Of a DNA stretch of 64,000 nt, positions 2,101 through 56,888 are shown in pieces; within the stretch, counting starts at the first letter, position 1; each line of letters opens with the position of its first letter. Source of the DNA: Eledone cirrhosa (taxonomy: Eukaryota); the NCBI GenBank assembly GCA_964016885.1, contig OZ024746.1:20150001-20214000 (forward strand), written 5' to 3'. The translations under genes and the position numbers were made by a program. Below the pieces are notes generated by a model. The model did no database searches. It was not told the DNA's origin and was given only the letters and a program-made list of their open reading frames with translations.

Positions 2101-2199
2101 GTTCTACCACACTCTACTACCCCAAGTATCGAGTACTCTGGTTAGTAATGGTCTAACAGGTTTTTACTTTTACTGACTGCAGCCATTTTGATATATATG

Positions 2200-3441: not shown

Positions 3442-4525
3442 CTAGCAGAAAACCACCCGGTGGGCGTATTTTCTGCTAGCAAATCTAGTGTATATACTGA
3501 TATTGTTGAGATTTGGATGAGAAATGTTTTCGGCACCACATGTTCACCGTCTTTCGGTGTGTCTTTTATGCATGTATAAATCTATATGTTATCTATACGG
3601 TGAAATCTTTGAAATAAATATATGTTAAAATGAAAAAGGAGAAAATAAATAACTGGCGGTTAGAAAAAAATATTCCTATGAAATTTTAATCATACCATTA
3701 GGTGTGAATAAGGAAATATTTTTTTATTGTCAAAACAAATGTTCAAAAGTTAAACTTCAATTTTTTGAATTATTTCCAATTTTTTCATGAAATTGAACAC
3801 TGGACATTGGCTGCTGGAAATGGAAATTAAATCGTATTTAATTGTATTTAAATTTCTAACTTTATTTTATTATTTATATTTTTTCAATAAGAAATAAAAA
3901 AACACAACAACAAAAATAAAAGGAAAAAATTGAACAAATCAAACGTAGGTTATGGAACTGCGCAATCTGATTAATAAATTACCTCATCAGCAGCAACCTT
4001 CTTCAAATGGTCCTTATTATCAGCAGCAACAACCACAAATTCAATGGCAACATACTTCAAACCACAAATTCAATGGCAACCTTCTTCAAATGGTCCTTAT
4101 TATCAGCAGCAACAACCACAAATTCAATGGCAACATACTTCAAACCACAAATTCAATGGCAACCTTCTTCAAATGGTCCTTATTATCAGCAGCAACAACC
4201 ACAAATTCAATGGCAGCCTTCTTCAAACCATAAATTCAATGGCAACCTTCTTCGCATGGTGTCAAGTCAGAACCGCCTCGAACTGGTTACTTCTGGCTTG
4301 TGCAACCAGCGATTCCCTCGGCCTCAGTGACCAAAGTCAGTGGAGAGGGGAAGGTAATATTTCTGTAGCACGTGTTTTAGCGTCTATTCACTCTCTCTCT
4401 CTCCCCCCCCCGCTATCCCCCTCTCGTAGTCTGTCTCTTTCTGTCACTCTCACTCTCTCTCTACGCACGTGTTTCCACTGTCGGACAGACAGACAGAGAA
4501 ATTGCTGGTTATATATATAAGTAGA
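3442..4525 (-). mobile_element. Non-autonomous Helitron, second unit of tandem array
   Basis: Minus strand starts TCTACTTATATATATAACC plus (ctgt)n; ends with hairpin and ttttctgCTAG joined directly to the TC of the next unit. Confidence 0.7.
3986..4252. repeat. 83-bp tandem repeat (~3 copies) inside the Helitron
   Basis: aaccttcttcaaatggtcc at 3995, 4078 and 4161. Confidence 0.9.
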
Positions 4526-5665: not shown

Positions 5666-6516
5666 TTTTGAGATAGAGCGCCCGTGATGTTTGCTCTAAT
5701 ACAGATTAGTTTCTCGTATATCAGTATTTATTTTGGGGGATTCTGAATTAATATTTCGTATTGGTTTTCCATATATATTGTACGAGTATTTATGTAGATT
5801 GTATTAGAATTTATGTATTGTAGCGGTATTTATATATATTGTATTAGTCTTTTATATATATTGTACGAGTATTTATGTAGATTGTATTAGAATTTATGTA
5901 TTGTAGCAGTACTTATATATATTGTATTAGTATTCGCGTTTCGGGAGTCTGAATTAATATTTCGTATTAGCTTTTTTTTTTTATTTTTTTTAGTGTGTTG
6001 GCCCCCAACTTGTCGACCTGTCATTGTAAGATAGCATTGGCCGATTACTACTAACTATTGTAGTGGTGGTAGACCCCTGTCATGATGGCCTCATAAAATT
6101 CTTTCACTACAATCTCGTATTTAGTATTCCTTCCTACTTATTAAACTCTTCTATAGCTTAGCAGTACCAGTGAGAGACTTGGTGATTGTGGAAGAGGACT
6201 AGTAACCCGAAATTGTTTTTTGTATTTTTTATATTTTTTTTTATATTTTTTATATATTTACCCCCTTTCAGATTTACTTATTGTTTCAACCCCCTCCCCT
6301 TCTCTAGTATACCTTTTCGACCTTCTATACACTATCCTTAGAATCTGCTGTAGTTTTCACTTTCAACGCTTGACTGGGTTTCCTCCACTCTCTCTTTCTT
6401 CTACTGGCAAGTTCAGCTACCCCTACCTTCCACAAAATGCCATGACAGAATCATGTGTCTTGACAACAAACTGTTGACCAATCCTTGTGACAATCACTTT
6501 TACCATATATGGAATT

Positions 6517-6613
6517 ACCCCCTGAGAAGTTCGGCTATTCACTTACCAGGCTAAAAAAATTTCATTTAGTCCAGAATTAGCCGTCGAAACGGCTTGAGCT
6601 CAGCCGTCGGGGT
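6517..6613 (+). ncRNA. Type I hammerhead motif with C3/A8 core mismatch, at the end of a Penelope-like repeat (element runs to ~6707)
   Basis: Stem I acccc/ggggt; CTGAGAA; stem II cggcta/tagccg; GAAA; stem III acggct/agccgt; GTC triplet. Confidence 0.65.
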
Positions 6614-6856
6614 CCTACTTGTTCCTATTACCCACTCTACTACCCTAAGTATTGAGTACTTTGGTGCGTTATGGTCCATCTGGTTCCTTACCACATTTCC
6701 TTCGTTATATATATATACGTTATGTCCTTGAACAAGACACTTTATTTCACGTTGCTCCTTCTACCTGGAGTTGCCACCGATAGATAGTATTAGCAATTGG
6801 AAAGACCAATGGAAACATTATTTCCTCTGTCCGATTTGATGAAAGTCGATCGACTG

Positions 6857-10054: not shown

Positions 10055-10769
10055 ATTATATAAATTATAACCGCTCGAAATCTTTGTGACTCTTTTTCTG
10101 TATGTAAAGATTTCATTCAACTAATCAAATCTGACTTTAGTAGACTCTGCTCTACTGATGTGGTTCAATAAACCCAAAACATCTACGTTGTTCTTCGTCT
10201 GACTGCAAACAAAGATTACATTTTCCCATAAACATGTAATTTAATTTTGTCAAATTATTTTTTTAATTTCTTGAAAGATCTCTTCTCCTTAGACTCGCTA
10301 ACAATTACGTCTTGGTTGTCGTTTTGGTCACGTACTCATATAACACGCTGTTGGTGTGAAGACATGTTCAACAAATACTTAATGTCATCGTGTTAAATAT
10401 ATACAACGTTTATTTCCATTAATATATCTAAGAGTTCATTGTTGTAGTTTGACTACTCGAAATATCTCTAATATATTAATGATGCTACTTATATAGATAT
10501 GTGTGTCTGTATAAAGTTAAAAGAAAGTGGCCTAGTATGACATGTTTATTATTTTTATGTATGAATCTGCATGTACAGTATATGTTTGTATGAATGTATA
10601 TACATGTGTGTGTATTGTGCGTGTATGTGTGTGTGTGTTTTTTGTATATGCACGTATTCAAAATAAATTATGTGTTGAAATATATGTGCGTTACAAACTA
10701 CCGATGAATCCTCAACGTGGTCGCTCGACCTGCTAGAAATAGTACTTAAGTCTAAAAGTCTAAAGTCTG

Positions 10770-11045
10770 TCTTGTACCCGGAGGTTCATAAGGCCGGTCA
10801 TTATCCTGGTTTCCGTGGCGTTAAGCAATTGAGAGTACAAGACTTCTCCCAAGACAGGACACCAATCCATCTCAGAATTAAATCCTCAGCTGTTTCTGGT
10901 ACTCATTTTCAGCTGAGTATACAGGAGCAACGTGAAATGAAGTGTTTTGCTCAAAAATACAACACACAACCCAGTCCAGGAATCGAACCTTTGCCATTAT
11001 GATCGTAAATTCAACACCCTTACCACTTAGTCACTCGCCTCCACC
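10770..11045 (-). mobile_element. tRNA-derived SINE family B
   Basis: Minus: A-box ggcgagtgactaagtgg, B-box ggttcgattcc, body ttgagcaaaacacttcatttcacgttgctcc; related copies at 19985, 22612 and 62895. Confidence 0.8.
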
Positions 11046-13554: not shown

Positions 13555-14307
13555 GGAGTCAAAGGGTCGCCGCAGAAACGTACGGCATTTCTAGGGCATT
13601 TTGAAAAACCTGGTAGTACCCATCTCCTCTTCAGGTCTGAATACAGAAAATTTCTTCCAGAGAAGGATAGAACATGAGAGAAAGGAAGTGAGAAAGAGAT
13701 ATAAAGGAAGAATCGACCGCAGTAATTGACTAATACTTTTTTATCGACCTCAAATAGATGAAAGGCACAGTTGGCCTCGGTGGGATTTGAACTCAGGGAG
13801 CAGAGAGCCGGCATGAGTGCAGCAGAGCATTTTATCTGACGTTCTAACCACTCTACCATTTTATCTGACGTTCTAACCACTCTACCATTTTATCTGACGT
13901 TCTAACGACTCTACCATTTTATCTGACGTTCTAACCACTCTACCATTTTATCTAACGTTCTAACCACTCTACCATTTTATCTGACGTTCTAACCACTCTC
14001 CCATTTTATCTGACGTTCTAACCACTCTACCATTTTATCTGACGTTCTAACCACTCTACCATTTTATCTGACGTTCTAACCACTCTCCCATTTTATCTGA
14101 CGTTCTAACCACTCTCCCATTTTATCTGACGTTCTAACCACTCTACCATTTTATCTGACGTTCTAACCACTCTCCCATTTTATCTGACGTTCTAACCACT
14201 CTCCCATTTTATCTGACGTTCTAACCACTCTCCCATTTTATCTGACGTTCTAACCACTCTCCCATTTTATCTGACGTTCTAACGACTGTCTGACAATTCG
14301 CCGCCTA
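13555..14307 (-). mobile_element. Long-tailed SINE with an internally amplified head
   Basis: B-box at ~13783-13796, core gcctttcatctatttgaggtcgataaa, tail shared with 24520 and 59815. Confidence 0.8.
13829..14285. repeat. 29-bp minisatellite, ~16 copies
   Basis: Unit attttatctgacgttctaaccactct(a/c)cc. Confidence 0.95.
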
Positions 14308-14402: not shown

Positions 14403-14535
14403 GAGAATTAGCCGTCGAAACGGCTTGAGCTCAGCTGTCGGGGTCTTACTGGTTCCTATTACCCACTCTACTACCTCAAGTATTGAGTACTTTGGTGAGT
14501 TATGGTCCACCTGGTTCCTTACCACATTTCCTTCG

Positions 14536-14538
<3 letters not shown>
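14403..14538 (+). mobile_element. 5'-truncated copy of the 6.5-kb hammerhead-bearing repeat (3' half of ribozyme only)
   Basis: gaattagccgtcgaaacggcttgagctcagctgtcggggtc...ccttcgtta then (TA)n; near-identical to 6574-6707. Confidence 0.85.
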
Positions 14539-17568: not shown

Positions 17569-17626
<58 letters not shown>

Positions 17627-17985
17627 CTAAATACATATAGTCACACATTCAACCACAAAGCCACAAACGTTTATATATATACATACGCCTGCATATGACC
17701 GTGTTAATGCATATATTATGTAAATATATTCACTTGACGTCGGGGTGTAAAATGTAAGTACGAGCCATAACATATAGTCAACGACAGTCACACACACACA
17801 CACACACACATCTAAATACATATAGTCACACATTCAACCACAAAGCCACAAACGTTTATATATACATAAGCCTGCATATGACCGTGTTAATGCATATATT
17901 ATGTAAATATATTCACTTGACGTCGGGGTGTAAAATGTAAGTACGAACCATAACATATAGTCAACGACAGTCACACACACACACA
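17565..17985. repeat. Tandem duplication of a ~185-bp unit carrying (CA)n
   Basis: tctaaatacatatagtcacacattcaacc at 17626 and 17811. Confidence 0.9.
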
Positions 17986-18031
17986 TACACACACACACAT
18001 ACAGATACACACATACAGATACACACTAACA

Positions 18032-18118
<87 letters not shown>

Positions 18119-18464: not shown

Positions 18465-18706
18465 GAGAGAAGGGAGAGAGATAGTAAGGGTCTATTGTTT
18501 GTTTGTTCCAGTATCCTTTTGTCATATTTTGATGTAATGTAAATTCAAATTGGGGCGTTGTTTGTGTATATGTTGATTTTAATTTTTTCGTTTATTTTAT
18601 TATTACATCTTTTATTCGAAATACCATCCTGACAGACATTTATCAATACATTGCGAGCACGACCTGGTATAATACCATTGGCATCAGAGAAACCTTTATC
18701 TAAATC

Positions 18707-18739
<33 letters not shown>

Positions 18740-18743
<4 letters not shown>

Positions 18744-18967
18744 AACCAGTAAGACCCCGACAGCTGAGCTCAAGCCGTTTCGACGGCTAATTCTGGACGG
18801 GTCCAGAATTAGCCGTCCAGAATCTGGACCGGTCCAGAATTAGCCGTCGAAACGGCTTGAGCTCAGCTGTCGGGGTCTTACTGGTTCCTATTACCCACTT
18901 TACTACCCCAAGTATTGAGTACTTTGGTGCGTTATGGTCCACCTGGTTCCTTACCACATTTCCTTCG

Positions 18968-18970
<3 letters not shown>
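18740..18970 (+). mobile_element. Hammerhead-bearing repeat with inverted 5' duplication
   Basis: 18740-18797 is the reverse complement of 18832-18890; (TA)n on both sides. Confidence 0.85.
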
Positions 18971-19021
<51 letters not shown>

Positions 19022-19051
19022 AGATCAAAAGATGGTTAAATGAGTTCCATG

Positions 19052-19122
19052 TATTTTATTATGCGCATTTCAAAAACAAATATCATCATGCAATAACATT
19101 TGTGTTTTCATCAGATAAAATA
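19052..19122 (-). ncRNA. Type I hammerhead ribozyme, canonical core
   Basis: tattttat CTGATGA aaacacaaatgtta-ttgcatga-tgatatttgttttt GAAA tgcgcaT A ataaaata: 8-bp stem I, ~14-bp stem II, palindromic stem III. Confidence 0.85.
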
Positions 19123-19226
19123 GGAGGACATGATATGAAGGTTAAAAACACTTGTGGATAGTGCAGTTTTAAATCAACATATCTGCACTATCCACAAGTG
19201 TTTTTAACCTTCATATCATGTCCTCC

Positions 19227-19297
19227 TATTTTATCTGCTGAAAACACAAATGTTATTGCATGATGATATTTGTTTTTGAAATGCGCATAATAAAATA
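19227..19297 (+). ncRNA. Inverted copy of the same hammerhead with core change A6C (CTGCTGA)
   Basis: Reverse complement of 19052-19122 except for one core base. Confidence 0.7.
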
Positions 19298-19416
19298 CAT
19301 GGAATTTATGTAGTACAATAAAGCAATGCAGATATTGGATAAGTAGCACTCTACAGTTTGTAGGACTGGAGTATATATAATATATAAGATCAAAAGATGG
19401 TTAAAAGAGTTCCATG

Positions 19417-19487
19417 TATTTTATTATGCGTATTTCAAAAACAAATATCATCATGCAATAACATTTGCATTTTCGTCAGATAAAATA
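19417..19487 (-). ncRNA. Type I hammerhead ribozyme, tandem copy (CTGACGA)
   Basis: tattttat CTGACGA ...stem II... GAAA tacgcaT A ataaaata, offset 365 nt from the first copy. Confidence 0.8.
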
Positions 19488-19984
19488 GGGAGACATGATA
19501 TGAAGGTTAAAACACACTTGTGAATAGTGCAGTTTTAAATCAACATAAATCAACATATGTTGATTTAAAACTAGTAGTTGGAAATGTTGGGTGAACATGT
19601 CTGTAAGAATTCTAGCTACGTTTAGGATATGAAAGACTCTTGGAACACTCTTGGGGAGAAGGAATCGATCGAATTTATTACTCTTTATTTATTGGTTTTC
19701 AGTAAAACATGAGATGTGTCCTACTGGACGTTGACTTTGTAAATTATTTACTAGTTTTATATAAATTGCCGCTTGATTTACATTTAGATCTCATTTCTAT
19801 TTCAATTTGTTGAGTCTTCTTCTACGTGTGCAGGAATTTGTATGCAAACACGAGTGGCGTATTACGGTCACGGTAGAAAATATTGCTTACTCTCCCTTGT
19901 TACGTGACACATAGCTGAAAACGTTAACCGACTGAGAATACAAGAATCCACCCTAGATAGGTTAACCTCAGAAGGTTAAAGTCT

Positions 19985-20283
19985 GTCTCGAGCCCGGAAG
20001 TCCATCAGGCCGGGGCCCTATCCAGGTTTCGGTAGTGTTAAGCGACTGAGAGTACAAGACTTTCCCCTAGGCAGGACACCAGTACAATACAGGGTTAAAC
20101 ACCCATGTATTGCTGCTGCTGCTGCTGCTGCTGCTGCTACTCATTTTCAGCTGAGTGTATTGGAGCAACGTGAAATGAAGGGTTTTGCTCAAGAACACAA
20201 CACGCAACCCAGTCCAGGAATCGAACCCATGACATTATGATCATAAGTCCTACACACTTACTACTAGGCCACACGCCTTCACT
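19985..20283 (-). mobile_element. SINE family B
   Basis: Minus: ggcgtgtggcctagtag A-box and ggttcgattcc B-box; similar to 10770-11045. Confidence 0.8.
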
Positions 20284-20378
20284 AAACATCTTTCCTGTGC
20301 TGCAAATGTCGTCCATTGACGGCGCTTTTTCCGAATGAAAGTTCAAATATTTACTATTGAATTTCAATCAATTCTTTA

Positions 20379-20487
20379 TCATCTCCCCGGCAGGGCAGAG
20401 TGGCTGGCTCCCTGTCATCTTCCCGGCAGGGCAGAGTGGCTGGCTCCCTGTCATCTCCCCGGCAGGGCAGAGTGGCTGGCTCCCTGT
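20379..20487. repeat. 36-bp GC-rich tandem repeat, 3 copies
   Basis: tcatctccccggcagggcagagtggctggctccctg at 20379, 20415 and 20451. Confidence 0.95.
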
Positions 20488-20600
20488 CGAAAGTTAGGTT
20501 TGAGGAGCAAGACATAAATCTAAACCGTATATATTTTTTGAATATTTGTTTCAATTGTTGTATCACTCTGTATAACGAATTATTTGTGAACCTGCGCATG

Positions 20601-22611: not shown

Positions 22612-22806
22612 CCCCTCCACCTGGACAGGATGCCAGTCCATCACAGGGTAAAACTCCCAGCTATTGTTGCTGGTACTTATTTTCAGCTGAGTATAACGGA
22701 GCAACGTGAAATGAAGTGTTTTACTCAAGAACACAAAACATAACCCAATCCAGGAATCGAACTCTCGACATTATGATCGTAAGTTCAAGACCTTTACCAT
22801 TAGGCT
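22612..22806 (-). mobile_element. SINE family B fragment
   Basis: tttcagctgagt..ggagcaacgtgaaatgaagtgttt..ccaggaatcgaac. Confidence 0.8.
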
Positions 22807-28777: not shown

Positions 28778-31700
28778 TAGTCGTAGTTGTGGCTGTAGTG
28801 GCGGTTGTAGTAGTTGTGGCTGTAGTGGCGGTTGTAGTAGTTGTGGCTGTAGTGGCGGTTGTAGTAGTTGTGGCTGTAGTGGCGGTTGTAGTAGTTGTGG
28901 CTGTAGTGGCGGTTGTAGTAGTTGTGGCTGTAGTGGCGGTTGTAGTAGTTGTGGCTGTAGTGGCCGTTGTAGTAGTTGTGGCTGTAGTGGCCGTTGTAGT
29001 AGTTGTGGCTGTAGTGGCGGTTGTAGTAGTTGTGGCTGTAGTGGCGGTTGTAGTAGTTGTGGCTGTAGTGGCCGTTGTAGTAGTTGTGGCTGTAGTGGCC
29101 GTTGTAGTAGTTGTGGCTGTAGTGGCGGTTGTAGTAGTTGTGGCAGTAGTGGCCGTTGTAGTAGTTGTGGCTGTAGTGGCGGTTGTAGTAGTTGTGGCTG
29201 TAGTGGCCGTTGTAGTAGTTGTGGCTGTAGTGGCCGTTGTAGTAGTTGTGGCTGTAGTGGCGGTTGTAGTAGTTGTGGCTGTAGTGGCGGTTGTAGTAGT
29301 TGTGGCTGTAGTGGCCGTTGTAGTAGTTGTGGCTGTAGTGGCGGTTGTAGTAGTTGTGGCTGTAGTGGCCGTTTTAGTAGTTGTGGCTGTAGTGGCCGTT
29401 GTAGTAGTTGTGGCTGTAGTGGCGGTTGTAGTAGTTGTGGCTGTAGTGGCCGTTGTAGTAGTTGTGGCAGTAGTGGCGGTTGTAGTAGTTGTGGCTGTAG
29501 TGGCCGTTGTAGTAGTTGTGGCTGTAGTAGCCGTTGTAGTAGTTGTGGCTGTAGTGGCGGTTGTAGTAGTTGTGGCTGTAGTGGCCGTTGTAGTAGTTGT
29601 GGCAGTAATGGCCGTTGTAGTAGTTGTGGCAGTAGTGACCGTTGTAGTAGTTGTGGCTGTAGTGGCGGTTGTAGTAGTTGTGGCTGTAGTGGCGGTTGTA
29701 GTAGTTGTGGCTGTAGTGGCCGTTGTAGTAGTTGTGGCAGTAATGGCCGTTGTAGTAGTTGTGGCTGTAGTGGCCGTTGTAGTAGTTGTGGCTCTAGTGG
29801 CGGTTGTAGTAGTTGTGGCTGTAGTGGCGGTTGTAGTAGTTGTGGCTGTAGTGGCCGTTGTAGTAGTTGTGGCTGTAGTGACCGTTGTAGTAGTTGTGGC
29901 TGTAGTGGCCGTTGTAGTAGTTGTGGCAGTAATGGCCGTTGTAGTAGTTGTGGCTGTAGTGGCCGTTGTAGTAGTTGTGGCTCCAGTGGCGGTTGTAGTA
30001 GTTGTGGCTGTAGTAGCCGTTGTAGTAGTTGTGGCAGTAGTGGCCGTTGTAGTAGTTGTGGCTGTAGTGGCCGTTGTAGTAGTTGTGGCTCCAGTGGCGG
30101 TTGTAGTAGTTGTGGCTGTAGTAGCCGTTGTAGTAGTTGTGGCAGTAGTGGCCGTTGTAGTAGTTGTGGCTGTAGTGGCGGTTGTAGTAGTTGTGGCTGT
30201 AGTGGCCGTTGTAGTAGTTGTGGCTCCAGTGGCGGTTGTAGTAGTTGTGGCTGTAGTAGCCGTTGTAGTAGTTGTGGCAGTAGTGGCCGTTGTAGTAGTT
30301 GTGGCTGTAGTGGCCGTTGTAGTAGTTGTGGCTCCAGTGGCGGTTGTAGTAGTTGTGGCTGTAGTAGCCGTTGTAGTAGTTGTGGCAGTAGTGGCCGTTG
30401 TAGTAGTTGTGGCTGTAGTGGCGGTTGTAGTAGTTGTGGCTGTAGTGGCCGTTGTAGTAGTTGTGGCAGTAGTGACCGTTGTAGTAGTTGTGGCTGTAGT
30501 GGCGGTTGTAGTAGTTGTGGCTGTAGTGGCCGTTGTAGTAGTTTTGGCTGTAGTGGCGGTTGTAGTAGCTGTGGCAGTAGTGGCCGTTGTAGTAGTTGTG
30601 GCTGTAGTGGCCGTTGTAGTAGTTGTGGCAGTAGTGGCCATTGTAGTAGTTGTGGCTGTAGTGGCCGTTGTAGTAGTTGTGGCAGTAGTGGCCGTTGTAG
30701 TAGTTGTGGCTGTAGTGGCCGTTGTAGTAGTTGTGGCAGTAGTGGCCGTTGTAGTAGTTGTGGCTGTAGTGGCGGTTGTAGTAGTTGTGGCTGTAGTGGC
30801 CGTTGTAGTAGTTGTGGCTGTAGTGGCCGTTGTAGTAGTTGTGGCTGTAGTGGCCGTTGTAGTAGTTGTGGCTGTAGTAGCGGTTGTAGTAGTTGTGGCT
30901 GTAGTGGCCGTTGTAGTAGTTGTGGCTGTAGTGGCGGTTGTAGTAGTTGTGGCTGTAGTGGCGGTTGTAGTAGTTGTGGCTGTAGTGGCGGTTGTAGTAG
31001 TTGTGGCTGTAGTGGCCGTTGTAGTAGTTGTGGCTGTAGTGGCTGTTGTAGTAGTTGTGGCTGTAGTGGCGGTTGTAGTAGTTGTGGCTGTAGTGGCCGT
31101 TGTAGTAGTTGTGGCAGTAGTGGCCGTTGTAGTAGTTGTGGCTGTAGTGGCCGTTGTAGTAGTTGTGGCTGTAGTGGCGGTTGTAGTAGTTGTGGCTGTA
31201 GTGGCGGTTGTAGTAGTTGTGGCTGTAGTGGCCGTTGTAGTATTGTGGCTGTAGTGGCGGTTGTAGTAGCTGTGGCTGTAGTGGCCGTTGTAGTAGTTGT
31301 GGCAGTAGTGGCGGTTGTAGTAGTTGTGGCTGTAGTGGTCGTTGTAGTAGTTGTGGCAGTAGTGGCGGTTGTAGTAGTTGTGGCTGTAGTGGCCGTTCTA
31401 GTAGTTGTGGCTGTAGTGGCCGTTGTAGTAGTTGTGGCTGTAGTAGCCGTTGTAGAAGTTGTGGCTGTAGTGGCCGTTGTAGTAGTTGTGGCTGTAGTGG
31501 CCGTTGTAGTAGTTGTGGCAGTAGTGGCCGTTGTAGTAGTTGTGGCTGTAGTGGCGGTTGTAGTAGTTGTGGCTGTAGTGGCCGTTGTAGTAGTTGTGGC
31601 AGTAGTGGCCGTTGTAGTAGTTGTGGCTGTAGTGGCCGTTGTAGTAGTTGTGGCTCTAGTGGCGGTTGTAGTAGTTGTGGCTGTAGTGGCGGTTGTAGTA

Positions 31701-34700
31701 GTTGTGGCTGTAGTGGCCGTTGTAGTAGTTGTGGCTGTAGTGACCGTTGTAGTAGTTGTGGCTGTAGTGGCCGTTGTAGTAGTTGTGGCAGTAATGGCCG
31801 TTGTAGTAGTTGTGGCTGTAGTGGCCGTTGTAGTAGTTGTGGCTCCAGTGGCGGTTGTAGTAGTTGTGGCTGTAGTAGCCGTTGTAGTAGTTGTGGCAGT
31901 AGTGGCCGTTGTAGTAGTTGTGGCTGTAGTGGCCGTTGTAGTAGTTGTGGCTCCAGTGGCGGTTGTAGTAGTTGTGGCTGTAGTAGCCGTTGTAGTAGTT
32001 GTGGCAGTAGTGGCCGTTGTAGTAGTTGTGGCTGTAGTGGCGGTTGTAGTAGTTGTGGCTGTAGTGGCCGTTGTAGTAGTTGTGGCTCCAGTGGCGGTTG
32101 TAGTAGTTGTGGCTGTAGTAGCCGTTGTAGTAGTTGTGGCAGTAGTGGCCGTTGTAGTAGTTGTGGCTGTAGTGGCCGTTGTAGTAGTTGTGGCTCCAGT
32201 GGCGGTTGTAGTAGTTGTGGCTGTAGTAGCCGTTGTAGTAGTTGTGGCAGTAGTGGCCGTTGTAGTAGTTGTGGCTGTAGTGGCGGTTGTAGTAGTTGTG
32301 GCTGTAGTGGCCGTTGTAGTAGTTGTGGCTCCAGTGGCGGTTGTAGTAGTTGTGGCTGTAGTAGCCGTTGTAGTAGTTGTGGCAGTAGTGGCCGTTGTAG
32401 TAGTTGTGGCTGTAGTGGCCGTTGTAGTAGTTGTGGCTCCAGTGGCGGTTGTAGTAGTTGTGGCTGTAGTAGCCGTTGTAGTAGTTGTGGCAGTAGTGGC
32501 CGTTGTAGTAGTTGTGGCTGTAGTGGCGGTTGTAGTAGTTGTGGCTGTAGTGGCCGTTGTAGTAGTTGTGGCAGTAGTGACCGTTGTAGTAGTTGTGGCT
32601 GTAGTGGCGGTTGTAGTAGTTGTGGCTGTAGTGGCCGTTGTAGTAGTTTTGGCTGTAGTGGCGGTTGTAGTAGCTGTGGCAGTAGTGGCCGTTGTAGTAG
32701 TTGTGGCTGTAGTGGCCGTTGTAGTAGTTGTGGCAGTAGTGGCCATTGTAGTAGTTGTGGCTGTAGTGGCCGTTGTAGTAGTTGTGGCAGTAGTGGCCGT
32801 TGTAGTAGTTGTGGCTGTAGTGGCCGTTGTAGTAGTTGTGGCAGTAGTGGCCGTTGTAGTAGTTGTGGCTGTAGTGGCGGTTGTAGTAGTTGTGGCTGTA
32901 GTGGCCGTTGTAGTAGTTGTGGCTGTAGTGGCCGTTGTAGTAGTTGTGGCTGTAGTGGCCGTTGTAGTAGTTGTGGCTGTAGTAGCGGTTGTAGTAGTTG
33001 TGGCTGTAGTGGCCGTTGTAGTAGTTGTGGCTGTAGTGGCGGTTGTAGTAGTTGTGGCTGTAGTGGCGGTTGTAGTAGTTGTGGCTGTAGTGGCGGTTGT
33101 AGTAGTTGTGGCTGTAGTGGCCGTTGTAGTAGTTGTGGCTGTAGTGGCTGTTGTAGTAGTTGTGGCTGTAGTGGCGGTTGTAGTAGTTGTGGCTGTAGTG
33201 GCCGTTGTAGTAGTTGTGGCAGTAGTGGCCGTTGTAGTAGTTGTGGCTGTAGTGGCCGTTGTAGTAGTTGTGGCTGTAGTGGCGGTTGTAGTAGTTGTGG
33301 CTGTAGTGGCGGTTGTAGTAGTTGTGGCTGTAGTGGCCGTTGTAGTATTGTGGCTGTAGTGGCGGTTGTAGTAGCTGTGGCTGTAGTGGCCGTTGTAGTA
33401 GTTGTGGCAGTAGTGGCGGTTGTAGTAGTTGTGGCTGTAGTGGTCGTTGTAGTAGTTGTGGCAGTAGTGGCGGTTGTAGTAGTTGTGGCTGTAGTGGCCG
33501 TTCTAGTAGTTGTGGCTGTAGTGGCCGTTGTAGTAGTTGTGGCTGTAGTAGCCGTTGTAGAAGTTGTGGCTGTAGTGGCCGTTGTAGTAGTTGTGGCTGT
33601 AGTGGCCGTTGTAGTAGTTGTGGCAGTAGTGGCCGTTGTAGTAGTTGTGGCTGTAGTGGCGGTTGTAGTAGTTGTGGCTGTAGTGGCCGTTGTAGTAGTT
33701 GTGGCAGTAGTGGCCGTTATAGTAGTTGTGGCTGTAGTGGCGGTTCTAGTAGTTGTGGCTGTAGTGGCCGTTGTAGTAGTTGTGGCTGTAGTGACCGTTG
33801 TAGTAGTTGTGGCTGTAGTGGCCGTTGTAGTAGTTGTGGCAGTAGTGGCCGTTGTAGTAGTTGTAGCTGTAGTGGCCGTTGTAGTAGTTGTGGCTGTAGT
33901 GGCGGTTGTAGTAGTTGTGGCTGTAGTGGTGGTTGTAGTAGTTGTGGCAGTAGTGGCCGTTCTAGTAGTTGTGGCTGTAGTGGCCGTTGTAGTAGTTGTG
34001 GCTGTAGTGGCCGTTGTAGTAGTTGCGGCTGTAGTGGCGGTTCTAGTAGTTGTGGCTGTAGTGGCCGTTGTAGTAGTTGTGGCTGTAGTGGCGGTTCTAG
34101 TAGTTGTGGCTGTAGTGGCGGTTGTAGTAGTTGTGGCTGTAGTGGCCGTTGTAGTAGTTGTGGCTGTAGTGGCGGTTGTAGTAGTTGTGGCTGTAGTGGC
34201 CGTTGTAGTAGTTGTGGCTGTAGTGGCCGTTGTAGTAGTTGTGGCTGTAGTGGCGGTTGTAGTAGTTGTGGCTGTAGTGGCCGTTGTAGTAGTTGTGGCT
34301 GTAGTGACTGTTGTAGTAGTTGTGGCTGTAGTGGCCGTTGTAGTAGTTGTGGCAGTAGTGGCCGTTGTAGTAGTTGTGGCTGTAGTGGCCGTTGTAGTAG
34401 CTGTGGCTGTAGTGGCGGTTGTTGTAGTTGTGGCTGTAGTGGCGGTTGTAGTAGTTGTGGCAGTAGTGGCCGTTCTAGTAGTTGTGGCTGTAGTGGCCGT
34501 TGTAGTAATTGTGTCTGTAGTGGCGGTTGTAGTAGTTGTGGATGTAGTGGCGGTTGTAGTAGTTGTGGATGTAGTGGCGGTTGTAGTAGTTGTGGCTGTA
34601 GTGGCCGTTGTAGTAGTTGTGGCTGTAGTGGCCGTTGTAGTAGTTGTGGCTGTAGTGGCCGTTGTAGTAGTTGTGGCTGTAGTGGCCGTTGTAGTAGTTG

Positions 34701-37700
34701 TGGCTGTAGTGGCGGTTGTAGTAGTTGTGGCTGTAGTGGCCGTTGTAGTAGTTGTGGCTATAGTGGCAGTTGTAGTAGCTGTGGCTGTAGTGGCGGTTGT
34801 AGTAGTTGTGGCTGTAGTGGCCGTTGTAGTAGTTGTGGCTGTAGTGGCCGTTGTAGTAGTTGTGGCTGTAGTGGCGGTTGTAGTAGTTGTGGCTGTAGTG
34901 GCCGTTGTAGTAGTTGTGGCTGTAGTGGCGGTTGTAGTAGCTGTGGCTGTAGTGGCGGTTGTAGTAGTTATGGCTGTATTGGCCGTTGTAGTAGTTGTGG
35001 CTGTAGTGGCCGTTGTAGTAGTTGTGGCAGTAGTGGCCGTTGTAGTAGTTGTGGCAGTAGTGGCCGTTGTAGTAGTTGTGGCTGTAGTGGCGGTTGTAGT
35101 AGTTGTGGCTGTAGTGGCGGTTGTAGTAGTTGTGGCAGTAGTGGCCGTTGTAGTAGTTGTGGCTGTAGTGGCCGTTGTAGTAGTTGTGGCAGTAATGGCC
35201 GTTGTAGTAGTTGTGGCTGTAGTGGCCGTTGTAGTAGTTGTGGCTGTAGTGGCCGTTGTAGTAATTGTGGCTGTAGTAGCCGTTGTAGTAGTTGTGGCTG
35301 TAGTAGCCGTTGTAGTAGTTGTGGCTGTAGTGGCCGTTGTAGTAGTTGTGGCTGTAGTGGCCGTTGTAGTAGTTGTGGCTGTAGTGGCCGTTGTAGTAGT
35401 TGTGGCTGTAGTGGCGGTTGTAGTAGTTGTGGCTGTAGTGGCCGTTGTAGTAGTTGTGGCTGTAGTGGCGGTTGTAGTAGTTGTGGCTGTAGTGGCCGTT
35501 TTAGTAGTTGTGGCTGTAGTGGCCGTTGTAGTAGTTGTGGCTGTAGTGGCGGTTGTAGTAGTTGTGGCTGTAGTGGCCGTTGTAGTAGTTGTGGCAGTAG
35601 TGGCGGTTGTAGTAGTTGTGGCTGTAGTAGCCGTTGTAGTAGTTGTGGCTGTAGTGGCGGTTGTAGTAGTTGTGGCTGTAGTGGCGGTTGTAGTAGTTGT
35701 GGCTGTAGTGGCCGTTGTAGTAGTTGTGGCAGTAATGGCCGTTGTAGTAGTTGTGGCAGTAGTGACCGTTGTAGTAGTTGTGGCTGTAGTGGCGGTTGTA
35801 GTAGTTGTGGCTGTAGTGGCGGTTGTAGTAGTTGTGGCTGTAGTGGCCGTTGTAGTAGTTGTGGCAGTAATGGCCGTTGTAGTAGTTGTGGCTGTAGTGG
35901 CCGTTGTAGTAGTTGTGGCTCTAGTGGCGGTTGTAGTGGTTGTGGCTGTAGTGGCGGTTGTAGTAGTTGTGGCTGTAGTGGCCGTTGTAGTAGTTGTGGC
36001 AGTAATGGCCGTTGTAGTAGTTGTGGCTGTAGTGGCCGTTGTAGTAGTTGTGGCTCCAGTGGCGGTTGTAGTAGTTGTGGCTGTAGTAGCCGTTGTAGTA
36101 GTTGTGGCAGTAGTGGCCGTTGTAGTAGTTGTGGCTGTAGTGGCGGTTGTAGTAGTTGTGGCTGTAGTGGCCGTTGTAGTAGTTGTGGCAGTAGTGACCG
36201 TTGTAGTAGTTGTGGCTGTAGTGGCGGTTGTAGTAGTTGTGGCTGTAGTGGCCGTTGTAGTAGTTTTGGCTGTAGTGGCGGTTGTAGTAGCTGTGGCAGT
36301 AGTGGCCGTTGTAGTAGTTGTGGCTGTAGTGGCCGTTGTAGTAGTTGTGGCAGTAGTGGCCGTTGTAGTAGTTGTGGCTGTAGTGGCCGTTGTAGTAGTT
36401 GTGGCTGTAGTGGCCGTTGTAGTAGTTGTGGCTGTAGTGGCCTTTGTAGTAGTTGTGGCCGTTGTAGTAGTTGTGGCTGTAGTAGCGGTTGTAGTAGTTG
36501 TGGCTGTAGTGGCCGTTGTAGTAGTTGTGGCTGTAGTGGCGGTTGTAGTAGTTGTGGCTGTAGTGGCGGTTGTAGTAGTTGTGGCTGTAGTAGCGGTTGT
36601 AGTAGTTGTGGCTGTAGTAGCGGTTGTAGTAGTTGTGGCTGTAGTGGCCGTTGTAGTAGTTGTGGCTGTAGTGGCGGTTGTAGTAGTTGTGGCTGTAGTG
36701 GCGGTTGTAGTAGTTGTGGCTGTAGTAGCGGTTGTAGTAGTTGTGGCTGTAGTGGCCGTTGTAGTAGTTGTGGCTGTAGTGGCCGTTGTAGTAGTTGTGG
36801 CTGTAGTGGCCGTTGTAGTAGTTGTGGCTGTAGTAGCGGTTGTAGTAGTTGTGGCTGTAGTGGCCGTTGTAGTAGTTGTGGCTGTAGTGGCCGTTGTAGT
36901 AGTTGTGGCTGTAGTGGCGGTTGTAGTAGTTGTGGCTGTAGTGGCGGTTGTAGTAGTTGTGGCTGTAGTGGCCGTTGTAGTAGTTGTGGCTGTAGTGGCT
37001 GTTGTAGTAGTTGTGGCTGTAGTGGCGGTTGTAGTAATTGTGGCTGTAGTGGCCGTTGTAGTAGTTGTGGCAGTAGTGGCCGTTGTAGTAGTTGTGGCTG
37101 TAGTTGCCGTTGTAGTAGTTGTGGCTGTAGTGACGGTTGTAGTAGTTGTGGCTGTAGTGGCGGTTGTAGTAGTTGTGGCTGTAGTGGCCGTTGTAGTATT
37201 GTGGCTGTAGTGGCGGTTGTAGTAGCTGTGGCTGTAGTGGCCGTTGTAGTAGTTGTGGCAGTAGTGGCGGTTGTAGTAGTTGTGGCTGTAGTGGCCGTTG
37301 TAGTAGTTGTGGCTGTAGTGGCCGTTGTAGTAGTTGTGGCTGTAGTGGCGGTTGTAGTAGTTGTGGCTGTAGTGGCGGTTGTAGTAGTTGTGGCTGTAGT
37401 GGCCGTTGTAGTAGTTGTGGCTGTAGTGGCCGTTGTAGTAATTGTGGCTGTAGTGACCGTTGTAGTAGTTGTGGCTGTAGTGGCCGTTGTAGTAGTTGTG
37501 GCTGTAGTGGCCGTTGTAGTAGTTGTGGCTGTAGTGGCGGTTCTAGTAGTTGTGGCTGTAGTGGCCGTTGTAGTAGTTGTGGCTGTAGTGGCCGTTGTAG
37601 TAGTTGTGGCTGTAGTGGCGGTTCTAGTAGTTGTGGCTGTAGTGGCGGTTGTAGTAGTTGTGGCTGTAGTGGCGGTTGTAGTAGTTGTGGCTGTAGTGGC

Positions 37701-39352
37701 GGTTCTAGTAGTTGTGGCTGTAGTGGCCGTTGTAGTAGTTGTGGCTGTAGTGGCGGTTCTAGTAGTTGTGGCTGTAGTGGCCGTTGTAGTAGTTGTGGCT
37801 GTAGTGGCGGTTGTAGTAGTTGTGGCTGTAGTGGCCGTTGTAGTAGTTGTGGCAGTAGTGGCCGTTGTAGTAGTTGTGGCTGTAGTGGCCGTTGTAGTAG
37901 TTGTGGCTGTAGTGGCGGTTGTAGTAGTTGTGGCAGTAGTTGCCGTTCTAGTAGTTGTGGCTGTAGTGGCCGTTGTAGTAGTTGTGGCTGTAGTGGCCGT
38001 TGTAGTAGTTGTGGCTGTAGTGGCGGTTGTAGTAGTTGTGGCTGTAGTGGCCGTTGTAGTAGTTGTGGCTATAGTGGCGGTTGTAGTAGTTGTGGCTGTA
38101 GTGGCGGTTGTAGTAGTTGTGGCTGTAGTGGCCGTTGTAGTAGTTGTGGCTGTAGTGGCGGTTGTAGTAGTTGTGGCTGTAGTGGCGGTTGTAGTAGTTG
38201 TGGCTGTAGTGGCCGTTGTAGTAGTTGTGGCTGTAGTGGCGGTTGTAGTAGCTGTGGCTGTAGTGGCGGTTGTAATAGTTGTGGCTGTAGTGGCGGTTGT
38301 AGTAGTTGTGGATGTAGTGGCGGTTGTAGTAGTTGTGGCTGTAGTGACGGTTGTAGTAGTTTTGGCTGTAGTGGCGGTTGTAGTAGTTGTGGCTGTAGTG
38401 GCCGTTGTAGTAGTTGTGGCTGTAGTGGCCGTTGTAGTAGTTGTGGCTGTAGTGGCGGTTGTAGTAGTTGTGGCTGTAGTGGCGGTTGTAGTAGTTGTGG
38501 CTGTAGTGACGGTTGTAGTAGTTGTGGCTGTAGTGGCGGTTGTAGTAGTTGTGGCTGTAGTGGCCGTTGTAGTAGTTGTGGCTGTAGTGGCCGTTGTAGT
38601 AGTTGTGGCTGTAGTGGCCGTTGTAGTAGTTGTGGCTGTAGTGGCGGTTGTAGTAGTTGTGGCTGTAGTGGCCGTTGTAGTAGTTGTGGCTGTAGTGGCC
38701 GTTGTAGTAGTTGTGGCAGTAGTGGCCGTTGTAGTAGTTGTGGCTGTAGTGGCGGTTGTAGTAGTTGTGGCTGTAGTGGCCGTTGTAGTAGTTGTGGCTG
38801 TAGTGGCCGTTGTAGTAGTTGTGGCAGTAGTGGCCGTTGTAGTAGTTGTGGCTGTAGTGGCGGTTGTAGTAGTTGTGGCAGTAGTGGCCGTTGTAGTAGT
38901 TGTGGCTGTAGTGGCCGTTGTAGTAGTTGTGGCTGTAGTGGCCGTTGTAGTAGTTGTGGCTGTAGTGGCCGTTGTAGTAGTTGTGGCTGTAGTGGCCGTT
39001 GTAGTAGTTGTGGCTGTAGTGGCGGTTGTAGTAGTTGTGGCAGTCGTGGCGGTTGTAGTAGTTGTGGCTGTAGTGGCCGTTGTAGTAGTTGTGGCTGTAG
39101 TGGCGGTTGTAGTAGTTGTGGCTGTAGTGGCCGTTGTAGTAGTTGTGGCTGTAGTGGCGGTTGTAGTAGTTGTGGCAGTCGTGGCGGTTGTAGTAGTTGT
39201 GGCTGTAGTGGCCGTTGTAGTAGTTGTGGCTGTAGTGGCCGTTGTAGTAGTTGTGGCTGTAGTGGCCGTTGTAGTAGTTGTGGCTGTAGTGGCCGTTGTA
39301 GTAGTTGTGGCTGTAGTGGCCGTTGTAGTAGTTGTGGCTGTAGTGGCCGTTG
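28778..39352. repeat. 27-bp satellite array, ~390 units
   Basis: Unit gttgtagtagttgtggc(t/a)gtagtggc(c/g), continuous for 10.6 kb. Confidence 0.99.
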
Positions 39353-53044: not shown

Positions 53045-53181
53045 AAATGTAGGGAAGTGACACACGAATTGATATATATAAACAAATAGTAAAAAGGAAA
53101 AATACAGTAGAACATGCTAGAGGGATCTTCTCAGTATAACATCAAAACATTTATTTATAAAGTAGGGATTTCCGCGTTTAA

Positions 53182-53222
53182 TCGTGTACCGGTTTCAGCA
53201 TTATATGCTTTTTCAACGACGG
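53182..53222 (-). ncRNA. Minimal type I hammerhead with U3-A8 core
   Basis: cgtcg TTGAAAA agcat-ata-atgct GAAA ccggT A cacg; stem I is short with one bulge. Confidence 0.65.
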
Positions 53223-54390
53223 AAGTGTATAGTTTCAGGGCATCCTTTTTTCCAAAGTGGATTAATTCAAATTTATCCTCATTCAACAGCATATCATTCA
53301 TTTCTGCCCATTGATCTGACTGAAGGCAAGTCCGGTCACCCACCTCATTGATGACCCTTTGGAGCTTGGAATCATCTGCGAAGGTTCTGATGTTGCTGTA
53401 CTTGATGATGTCAGTAATGTCATTAATGTAGATGATGAAAAGAAGTGGGACGCCACTGCTGACTTTGGCAGGGTTTGATTTTACTCCTTCGACTACAACA
53501 TGCTGGGTTCTGTCTGTCAGGAAACATTTGATCCACTGTAGTAACCTTCCAGAGACACCAATATTAGATAGTTTTTTCAGTAGAATCTTATGATCAACCC
53601 TATCGAAGGCCTTGTTCAAGTCAAGGTAGATGACATCAGTGTTGGAGCCCTCTCCCAAGGCTCTCAAAACATCGTCAAATTGATGCAGGAGCTGCGTTAG
53701 GCAGTCCCTTCCATTACGGAACCCATGTTGGTTGGAGTTCAGCAGGCCGTTGCGTTCAAGAAAGTGGGTTATTCGTGATCTCACCACCCTCTCAAATACC
53801 TTGATAATATGAGAGGTGAGTGAGATCGGACGGTAGTTCACTGCAAGGGACTTATTTCCCTTTTTGAAGACTGGGACAATGGACTGGGACAGAAAGTTTT
53901 CAGGAATATAGCCAGTGTCCAGTGAGTTCCTCCACAGATTAGCAAGAGGAGATGCAAGTTGGTGTCGACACACCTTCAGAACACAAGCAGGGAACCTGTC
54001 GGGGCCTACTGCTGAATTGTGTTTAATTTCGTTTATTGCCGCTAAGACATCAGGGGCGCCAAACATTATGTCTGATATAGTGTGTTGGGGATTAACATCA
54101 CTGATACAGCCTAGATCGGCCATATCAGGATTGCCGAAAACAGAGCAGTATTGTCTCTGCAGTATCTCGCCCATGGTTTTGGCATTGTCTTGGAGTGTGC
54201 CAGTTTCATCAACTAGGGGGCCAACAGTGGAGACGGTGACCTTGTGTTTTTTAGCAAATGAAAAGAACACTTTGGGGTTGAGTTTGATTTTCTCAATGGC
54301 CCACCTCTCTACAGCTATTCTCTGGTTATTGATGATGGTTTTCATGCATTGTTGGAGGTTATATTTTTTTGACTCAAGCAGGGTGATAGC
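53223..54390 (-). pseudogene. CR1/L2-group LINE reverse transcriptase fragment
   Basis: [32 protein letters not shown](QGSVLG deleted)LLF, FADDSKL; truncated at both ends. Confidence 0.92.
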
Positions 54391-54396
54391 TATATG

Positions 54397-54443
<47 letters not shown>

Positions 54444-54509
54444 GTTTATATATATATATGTATGTATATATATATACATATATATATACATATATATATA
54501 TATGCATAC

Positions 54510-54541
<32 letters not shown>

Positions 54542-55487
54542 GCATACACACACATATATATATATACATACACACACACACATATATATATATATCATAT
54601 ATATATATATATATATATGATATACATACATACATACATACATACATACATACATACATACATACATACATACATACATACATACATACATACATACATA
54701 CATACATACATACATACGGATGTATCTCGTTACTTATATCAAATATGAAATTGTCGTGAATTATTATTAATAATAATAAAAACTTACAAGATGGCTACTT
54801 AGAAAATATTCATAATTTTTGTGAATGAGTGATAAAGTTATTAACACATAAGAAGAGAAAAAGACCGGAAAAGATTGAATACTAAAAGAAATCGTGAAAC
54901 ACTAAGCTATTTCATAATAAATATTCATGGGAAATAAAGGAATCTTTCTTTTTATAAATTCAGAGATGAATTATATATGTCAAAAAACATTCTTGAAAAT
55001 TATACGTTGTCGTATATTTTTTCTTTCTTTTAGAATAACAAAATTAAGCGTTAATTATATTAGTACACATTTTCATACTAAGTTGAACCATAGAAACTGA
55101 GCGATTAATTCATGGGTCAAAATGAATTAAAGTTCACTTCCATCAAGTAAATTGATGACATTCAGAAATAAATCTAATGTAACAAAAGTGCCTTATATTA
55201 TAGTAGAAAAACATCGTTGTGTGAATTATATGTAGAATTATCAAGTTTAAAATATATGTACGTTTGTATACGGCAGGAAATAGGCAGCCATATCAATGTG
55301 TATATGGCGTATAAATAAAAAGCTGACAGAACAACCAGAAAATCGTTCTTAGCATTCGATTGAAAGCTCTAACACTCTTCTCCTACTATATCAAGCATTT
55401 ACACTAATATATTTTTTCACTGTACTGTATTGTTTGGCTTTTTGTTTCCGTTAACTTACACACATACACACATCTCTCCATCTCTCT

Positions 55488-56643: not shown

Positions 56644-56808
56644 TATATATATATATATATATATATATATTTGGAAACTCTGCTTCGTAGAATCGAGACG
56701 TATCTGAGGACCTTGCGATTTCAGAGTCAGGTTCGATCATTACAGAGAAACGATTGTAATATGTCTAATAAATTTTATTCGTCGCAACACTGATTCTCCG
56801 TTTCTTAT

Positions 56809-56888
<80 letters not shown>

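Follow-up and report, generated by a model that had tools for sequence, protein, structure and literature searches.

Several described systems come close to the locus analysed here, foremost among them the Penelope-like elements. Passages of Craig et al. 2021 (PMC8557442) give as typical of these elements 5′ truncation, an inverted truncated 5′ copy, an optional tail of 30-40 bp and a bias towards microsatellites. Head-to-head inverted pseudo-LTRs (pLTRs) with palindromes at the junction, for which self-priming is proposed, are described in parts of Arkhipova et al. 2013 (PMC3846280). For metazoan hammerhead ribozymes, excerpts of Cervera and De la Pena 2014 (PMC4209133) report pairs on opposite strands, separated by 100-700 bp and attributed to truncated elements, as well as a small palindromic helix III in Drosophila, rotifer and shrimp variants. 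The element PAc is described in passages of Frangieh et al. 2024 (PMC11167929) as having two internal start sites, nicking at AT-rich DNA and using uncleaved RNA, and cutting by a related ribozyme covered there depended on the protein of the element. For retrozymes, the relevant passages of Cervera and De la Pena 2020 (PMC7229834) and of Li et al. 2026 (10.64898/2026.07.22.740005) give a definition as tandem repeats, and the latter reports cleavage in only one of the nine dimers tested. Judged by their titles, the two papers listed for cephalopod hammerhead ribozymes do not deal with the family described below, and the main text of an Octopus vulgaris repeat paper contains neither 'hammerhead' nor 'ribozyme'.

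Here, we analyse a locus with three hammerhead motifs (A, B and C) in a 64-kb window, the whole stretch of DNA that was analysed. Most probably, three copies of the end piece that bears the hammerhead in a very abundant repeat have piled up at this locus; this end is likely the pLTR of an endonuclease-bearing (EN+) Penelope-like element, and a mirror copy is predicted to block ribozyme folding. Its features are as follows:

18741-18968, plus strand: neighbouring, unrelated repeat family of the same build, with an inverted head, the 3′ half of a hammerhead and a 78-nt optional tail
18969-19021, no strand: (TA)n microsatellite, a shared target, flanked by two 3′ ends, that of the neighbouring family to the left and that of copy A to the right
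19007-19182, minus strand: copy A, a 5′-truncated end piece of ~175 nt (pLTR-like), with the short 3′ end in the TA run
19052-19122, minus strand: hammerhead A, found by descriptor, with an 8-bp stem I, an intact core and a palindromic helix III
19167-19182, no strand: 16-nt loop where A and B meet head-to-head, the 5′ breakpoint of copy A (inverted-repeat analysis)
19183-19304, plus strand: copy B, inverted relative to A and matching it at 120 of 121 positions
19227-19297, plus strand: hammerhead B, with A6C at 19238 as its sole difference from A
19305-19371, minus strand: optional 3′ extension ('tail') attached to C and joined to B, with high depth in four of four runs
19372-19547, minus strand: copy C, a second 5′-truncated end piece (alignment against A)
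19417-19487, minus strand: hammerhead C, found by descriptor, with an intact core and a broken helix III palindrome
19548-19572, no strand: short fold-back at the 5′ end of C, sharing its breakpoint with the A/B turn and followed almost at once by unique flank

Searching both strands of the window with a strict type I descriptor gave exactly two matches, each with an 8-bp stem I: motif A (19122-19052) and motif C (19487-19417), both on the minus strand and 365 nt apart, just as a sequence-only reading of this DNA had described them. Among 100 dinucleotide shuffles, matches with a stem I of at least 5 bp averaged 0.04, and none of the 100 gave a match with at least 8 bp. Both motifs have the CUGAnGA/GAAA core, an NUH triplet and three helices with helix I open; the triplet of A is AUA, and the predicted cut sites are 19060/19059 for A and 19425/19424 for C. 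Motif B lies on the opposite strand and departs from the core at A6, and this mutated antisense copy, too, had been correctly noted. The description of these hammerheads as minimal type I motifs with a palindromic stem III needs amending: the palindrome is present in A and B, and it is broken in C by a change at 19431 (in the run mapping, a rare family allele among the variant rows listed). Nor are the helices minimal in length, with 8 bp in stem I and ~15 bp, one mismatch included, in stem II.

A match to a hammerhead model, which the sequence-only reading had proposed as a check, was not obtained: Rfam gave none at gathering score in the 64-kb window, and none appeared among the 32 weak matches in 18600-19800 or the six in 19040-19135. 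Weak matches to miRNA families in 18600-19800 were set aside, as they lie far under the cut-offs and reflect the long hairpin. Isolated A and C motifs of 71-96 nt fold no better than shuffles (z -0.65 to -1.26). Given this result and the Rfam blank, the identification rests on the descriptor and on variation within the family. As sequence motifs, the three hammerheads are real. A 29-nt tandem repeat at 13828-14287 (16 copies, 97%) has a unit that shares a short stretch with the stem I and core start of hammerhead C, and neither descriptor finds a full hammerhead in it.

Copies A and B form a hairpin with 130-nt arms (19037-19166 and 19183-19312) that are 97% complementary and enclose the 16-nt loop, which bears out the long fold-back reported earlier. 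Equally borne out are the adjoining (TA)n microsatellite and the absence of an ORF, the longest stop-free frame spanning ~33 codons on the minus strand of C and its tail. Over ~175 nt, C differs from A by nine substitutions and one indel, and at least four of the A/C differences (19041, 19103, 19110/19475 and 19126) are common family alleles among the variant rows listed. Since B matches A at 120 of 121 positions and C differs at nine positions plus the indel, B was likely made from A's template and C from another. A and C start at the same 5′ point, and each folds back there, A over 130 nt and C over ~16-25 nt. Because the two copies also span ~120 nt upstream of their predicted cut sites, the RNAs that served as templates had likely not been cleaved at that hammerhead. 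At its joint to B, the tail of C is missing the final portion of the family terminus. The spacing of 365 nt is the sum of tail, B and A; only ~175 of these 365 nt recur at the locus, and Tandem Repeats Finder (period up to 500) reports no array there.

The end piece belongs to a family that was mapped over 19016-19740 in four of the 15 listed sequencing runs (X1, X13, X4 and X6). Loose ends and variants are counted among those listed (for variants, 40 of 84 rows), and X13 counts are RAD reads rather than loci. The family is a very abundant dispersed repeat: in X1, 4,623 contigs map, and summed depth, which is no copy number, is ~3e4-1.6e6 on the unit, against 6.65 on the flank that begins at 19591. 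The assembly may itself derive from X1, which hence gives no independent support for the locus. Besides the X1 organism, the family is present in organism B (33 contigs) and organism C (38 contigs), that is, in at least three organisms. Within the 64-kb window, the strict descriptor finds no copy beyond the locus. X13 reads and an X4 contig also contain a subfamily with a different stem II (places 19079 and 19087; joint 19444-19100).

Family copies have two fixed 3′ ends ~80 nt apart, each beside TA-rich DNA. The short end, at 19372, leads into (TA)n in 83 contigs of X1, 274 reads of X13 and two contigs of X4 among the loose ends listed, and copy A stops at the equivalent site. The long end, at 19309, leads on to a conserved terminus of 18 letters and then to DNA rich in TA or A (17 contigs in X1, 2,677 reads in X13, two contigs in X4 and one contig in X6, again among the loose ends listed). 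The stretch 19313-19371 was considered as unique host DNA between insertions, and this was ruled out: 19316-19365 is as deep as the rest in four of four runs, which identifies it as the tail of the family. In X13, ~2,780 reads cover 19316-19340, the 2,677 reads that depart from the reference at 19309 are among them, and depth is ~12 at 19266-19290 within B, so almost no read passes from the tail into B. The 365-nt spacing thus appears peculiar to this locus. On the 5′ side, some copies run past 19182 into shared sequence (166 X13 reads, one X4 contig and part of 10 in X1). In both X1 and X13, joints between opposite strands are seen repeatedly at 19547-19549, and 281 X13 reads behind 19547, among the loose ends listed, enter an inverted copy of the family terminus.

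Variation among copies was set against the ribozyme fold. Nine distinct variants fall on paired positions in the 40 of 84 variant rows listed, and pairing survives in eight of them, compared with 28 of 50 cases for random transitions. The variant that breaks a pair is rare (1 of 490 and 1 of 142 reads, one contig). In the core, among the rows listed, the free position N7 alone varies commonly, and a G12 change is seen in few copies (6 of 542 reads and 5 of 212, plus one contig in X6). This pattern is supportive of helices and core being maintained across copies, which are related to one another, so that the variant count is no formal test. The sequence-only reading had named a loss of core and stems in other copies as a point that would count against it; among the variants listed, both look preserved.

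Although A and C are each predicted to form their stems in isolation, the fold predicted for the whole locus disfavours them. A alone shows pairing probabilities of 0.91 for stem I and 0.88 for stem II, and C with its tail shows 0.76 and 0.84. In the whole minus-strand transcript, stem I drops to 0.00 in A and 0.03 in C; the free fold has an energy of -250.7 kcal/mol versus -154.6 with both ribozymes imposed, a cost of ~96 kcal/mol. Imposing C alone costs 3.5 kcal/mol, and A alone 24. The fold of C is sensitive to context, with stem I at 0.76 alone and 0.01-0.33 with the 5′ fold-back; in growing transcripts, it stands at 0.33 just after synthesis and at most 0.10 thereafter. Helix III duplexes reach -10.5 (A:A), -5.5 (A:C) and -2.3 kcal/mol (C:C). 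On the plus-strand transcript, the stems of B are at 0.00, buried. All of these values are equilibrium predictions, which leave out kinetics and protein help.

In these models, B is predicted to sequester A, and the mirror copy to keep the ribozymes from folding. A read-through transcript is predicted to give a 120-bp double-stranded hairpin, which would more likely be a source of silencing small RNAs than of circles; a 365-nt circle from this locus is unlikely. The earlier suggestion that a minus-strand transcript could excise a 365-nt RNA from itself is thus disfavoured by the predicted folds, and the interval in question is not repeated in the family. Of the two roles proposed for the antisense copy, silencing of cleavage fits the folding result, and regulation does not carry over, as B looks like an insertion by-product rather than an evolved regulator. 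An X1 joint from 19419 to 19057 was rejected as a circle junction: it equals a small indel between direct repeats, and the run is not recorded as RNA.

The architecture agrees instead with the link to Penelope-like elements drawn in the sequence-only reading. Here, the hammerhead lies within a short terminal repeat; an inverted 5′-truncated copy stands at the 5′ end and turns at a palindrome, both in A/B and in the fold-back of C; there is an optional 3′ tail and hence two ends; and insertion is into AT-rich or microsatellite DNA. By analogy of build, membership in the Penelope-like class is likely. In such a scenario, the RT/GIY-YIG protein of the element would nick AT-rich DNA, and copying would begin at one of two internal start sites on RNA uncut at the hammerhead. 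It would halt near a short palindrome after ~175-250 nt, where a fold-back could then make the inverted copy. A and B would stem from one template in one event, and C from another template, through a separate insertion or a template jump; the hammerhead would be functional baggage of the parent element. A coding partner was not found among the 17 window ORFs scanned, which hold a single RT domain, of LINE type. This domain, at 53155-54591 on the minus strand (Pfam RVT_1), was rejected as the partner, as its best solved matches are LINE-1 ORF2 and R2; it is a fragment, and a TA-rich microsatellite interrupts the sequence upstream. Pattern scans of metagenome contigs (0 and 0) and viral contigs (0) gave no match.

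Two observations count against the Penelope reading: the tail measures ~80 nt where the published passages have 30-40 nt, and the shared 5′ stop of A and C would be expected of a defined non-autonomous RNA no less than of random truncation. The latter leads to a view that we regard as unlikely, in which the family is a dispersed non-autonomous mini-element of ~270 nt, a SINE-like Penelope passenger with a 5′ end of its own, piled up here by chance. The common breakpoint of A and C speaks for it, as do the other copies that turn back at 19547-19549, the 281 X13 reads that enter the inverted terminus behind 19547 (giving short terminal inverted repeats), the seemingly maintained helices and the missing coding partner in the window ORFs. 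However, other copies continue 5′ past the breakpoint (the 166 X13 reads, the X4 contig and part of the 10 in X1), the inversion length varies between ~130 nt and ~16-25 nt at this locus alone, and palindromes at pLTR 5′ ends are described in coding elements in parts of PMC3846280. The same inverted termini and TA flanks could suggest a DNA transposon derivative (a MITE with short terminal inverted repeats and a TA target) that carries its hammerhead by chance. This is scarcely credible, given the two alternative 3′ ends, the variable inversion length, the copies that reach further 5′ and a terminal inverted repeat that is absent from this locus.

The remaining alternative, raised by the sequence-only reading, is a tandem retrozyme whose A and C dimerise and release a circularising 365-nt RNA, with B as an antisense regulator. 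Two same-strand intact cores lie at a distance within the animal monomer range of 150-450 bp given in passages of PMC7229834, and hammerheads may be assisted by protein, as excerpts of PMC11167929 indicate, so that folding predictions could mislead. Against this, the interval contains a full antisense copy and does not recur in the family, the joint folding of both ribozymes carries the predicted cost of ~96 kcal/mol, and the helix III palindrome of C is broken. With no head-to-tail array, only ~175 of 365 nt recurring and family ends that adjoin TA-rich DNA, we hold a retrozyme to be very improbable, and the proposal is not sustained. Under the preferred Penelope-type pile, the locus is an ordinary case and likely not a source of a self-excising RNA circle.

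Further repeats in the window resemble this build. The neighbouring family (palindrome at 18741-18968, plus strand) has further copies at 6569-6705 and at 14404-14536 (both plus strand). Copies end at a fixed 3′ site in (TA)n; the inverted head stops short of the last 78 nt (the optional tail), and both ends lie in (TA)n. The 3′ half of a type I hammerhead, with GUC and a helix III of 6 bp, is present in each of the three, and there is G-C versus G-U variation from copy to copy. A whole hammerhead outline with a damaged core is found at 6517-6613, the only such copy. The family is listed also at 2105-2162 (plus strand), and two copies break inside stem II. A third candidate hammerhead, at 56696-56766 (plus strand), has an intact core, an 8-bp stem I, a near-palindromic helix III and a stem II that looks decayed. 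It sits in a 140-nt piece (56671-56812) between two (TA)n runs, which is single-copy in the window and possibly represents a third family. A relaxed descriptor gives five matches in the window versus a mean of 0.52 in 60 shuffles; either of the extra matches (6517-6613 or 56696-56766) could, taken alone, be chance.

The window is rich in other repeats. A dispersed repeat lies beside the locus at 19977-20120 and again at 10761-10882 and 22620-22672 (78% and 77% matches); it is followed, near 20140-20290, by a tRNA-like stretch that resembles a SINE. Short tandem arrays of high identity occupy 20379-20488 (36 nt), 3993-4260 (83), 5771-5931 (83) and 17604-18049 (183). At 28783-39352, a 27-nt unit is repeated 392 times over 10.6 kb (94% matches), with stop-free frames of up to 2,582 codons; this array may be either a minisatellite or a coding repeat of mucin-like type.

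Together, these results add a hammerhead-bearing family of Penelope type that is apparently uncatalogued in Rfam. They indicate that a retrozyme-like spacing of same-strand hammerheads can come from chance piling in (TA)n, and the comparison of A/B with C suggests that a mirror copy is likely made from the template of its partner. If the parent element were recovered, its 80-nt tail and recurrent fold-back point would test the models of internal initiation and self-priming. A bolder possibility, which we rate as doubtful, is that the family is an undescribed, very abundant, non-coding Penelope passenger of ~270 nt, spread over several related species, with a fixed 5′ fold-back point, an unusually long optional tail of 80 nt and a hammerhead under selection. 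A second and perhaps a third family in the window have the same build, and families of this sort would make the genome suited to mapping the origins of mirror copies and of the two start sites.

Compared with the known systems, as far as the passages cited cover them, the locus shows both likenesses and differences. With the non-LTR retrozymes of animals, it shares a type I hammerhead, non-coding sequence, low GC, a spacing in the monomer range and an origin common with pLTRs; unlike them, it is not arranged head-to-tail, holds an antisense copy inside, and belongs to a family that is dispersed with microsatellite flanks. The metazoan pLTR hammerheads of PMC4209133, to judge from the excerpts cited, are likewise type I with a long helix II, a short palindromic helix III and opposite-strand pairs, yet helix I is 8 bp and helix II ~15 bp here versus 4-5 and 7-8 bp there, and position 10.1-11.1 is A-U (G-U in a common variant) instead of the usual G-C. 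PAc, the Poseidon element of Anolis, resembles the family in its two 3′ ends, AC-rich terminus, AT-rich target and copies spanning an uncut hammerhead; in the passages cited, its ORF starts inside the hammerhead, whereas no open frame runs through the hammerhead here. Finally, EN+ Penelope insertions, as described in part of their literature, differ in that the tail here is ~80 nt, that no linked ORF accompanies the locus, and that two source copies are joined tail-to-tail via an inverted piece. What they share with this locus is an end piece of ~175 nt containing a hammerhead, an inverted copy set head-to-head with a palindrome where it turns, an optional 3′ extension and a (TA)n target.
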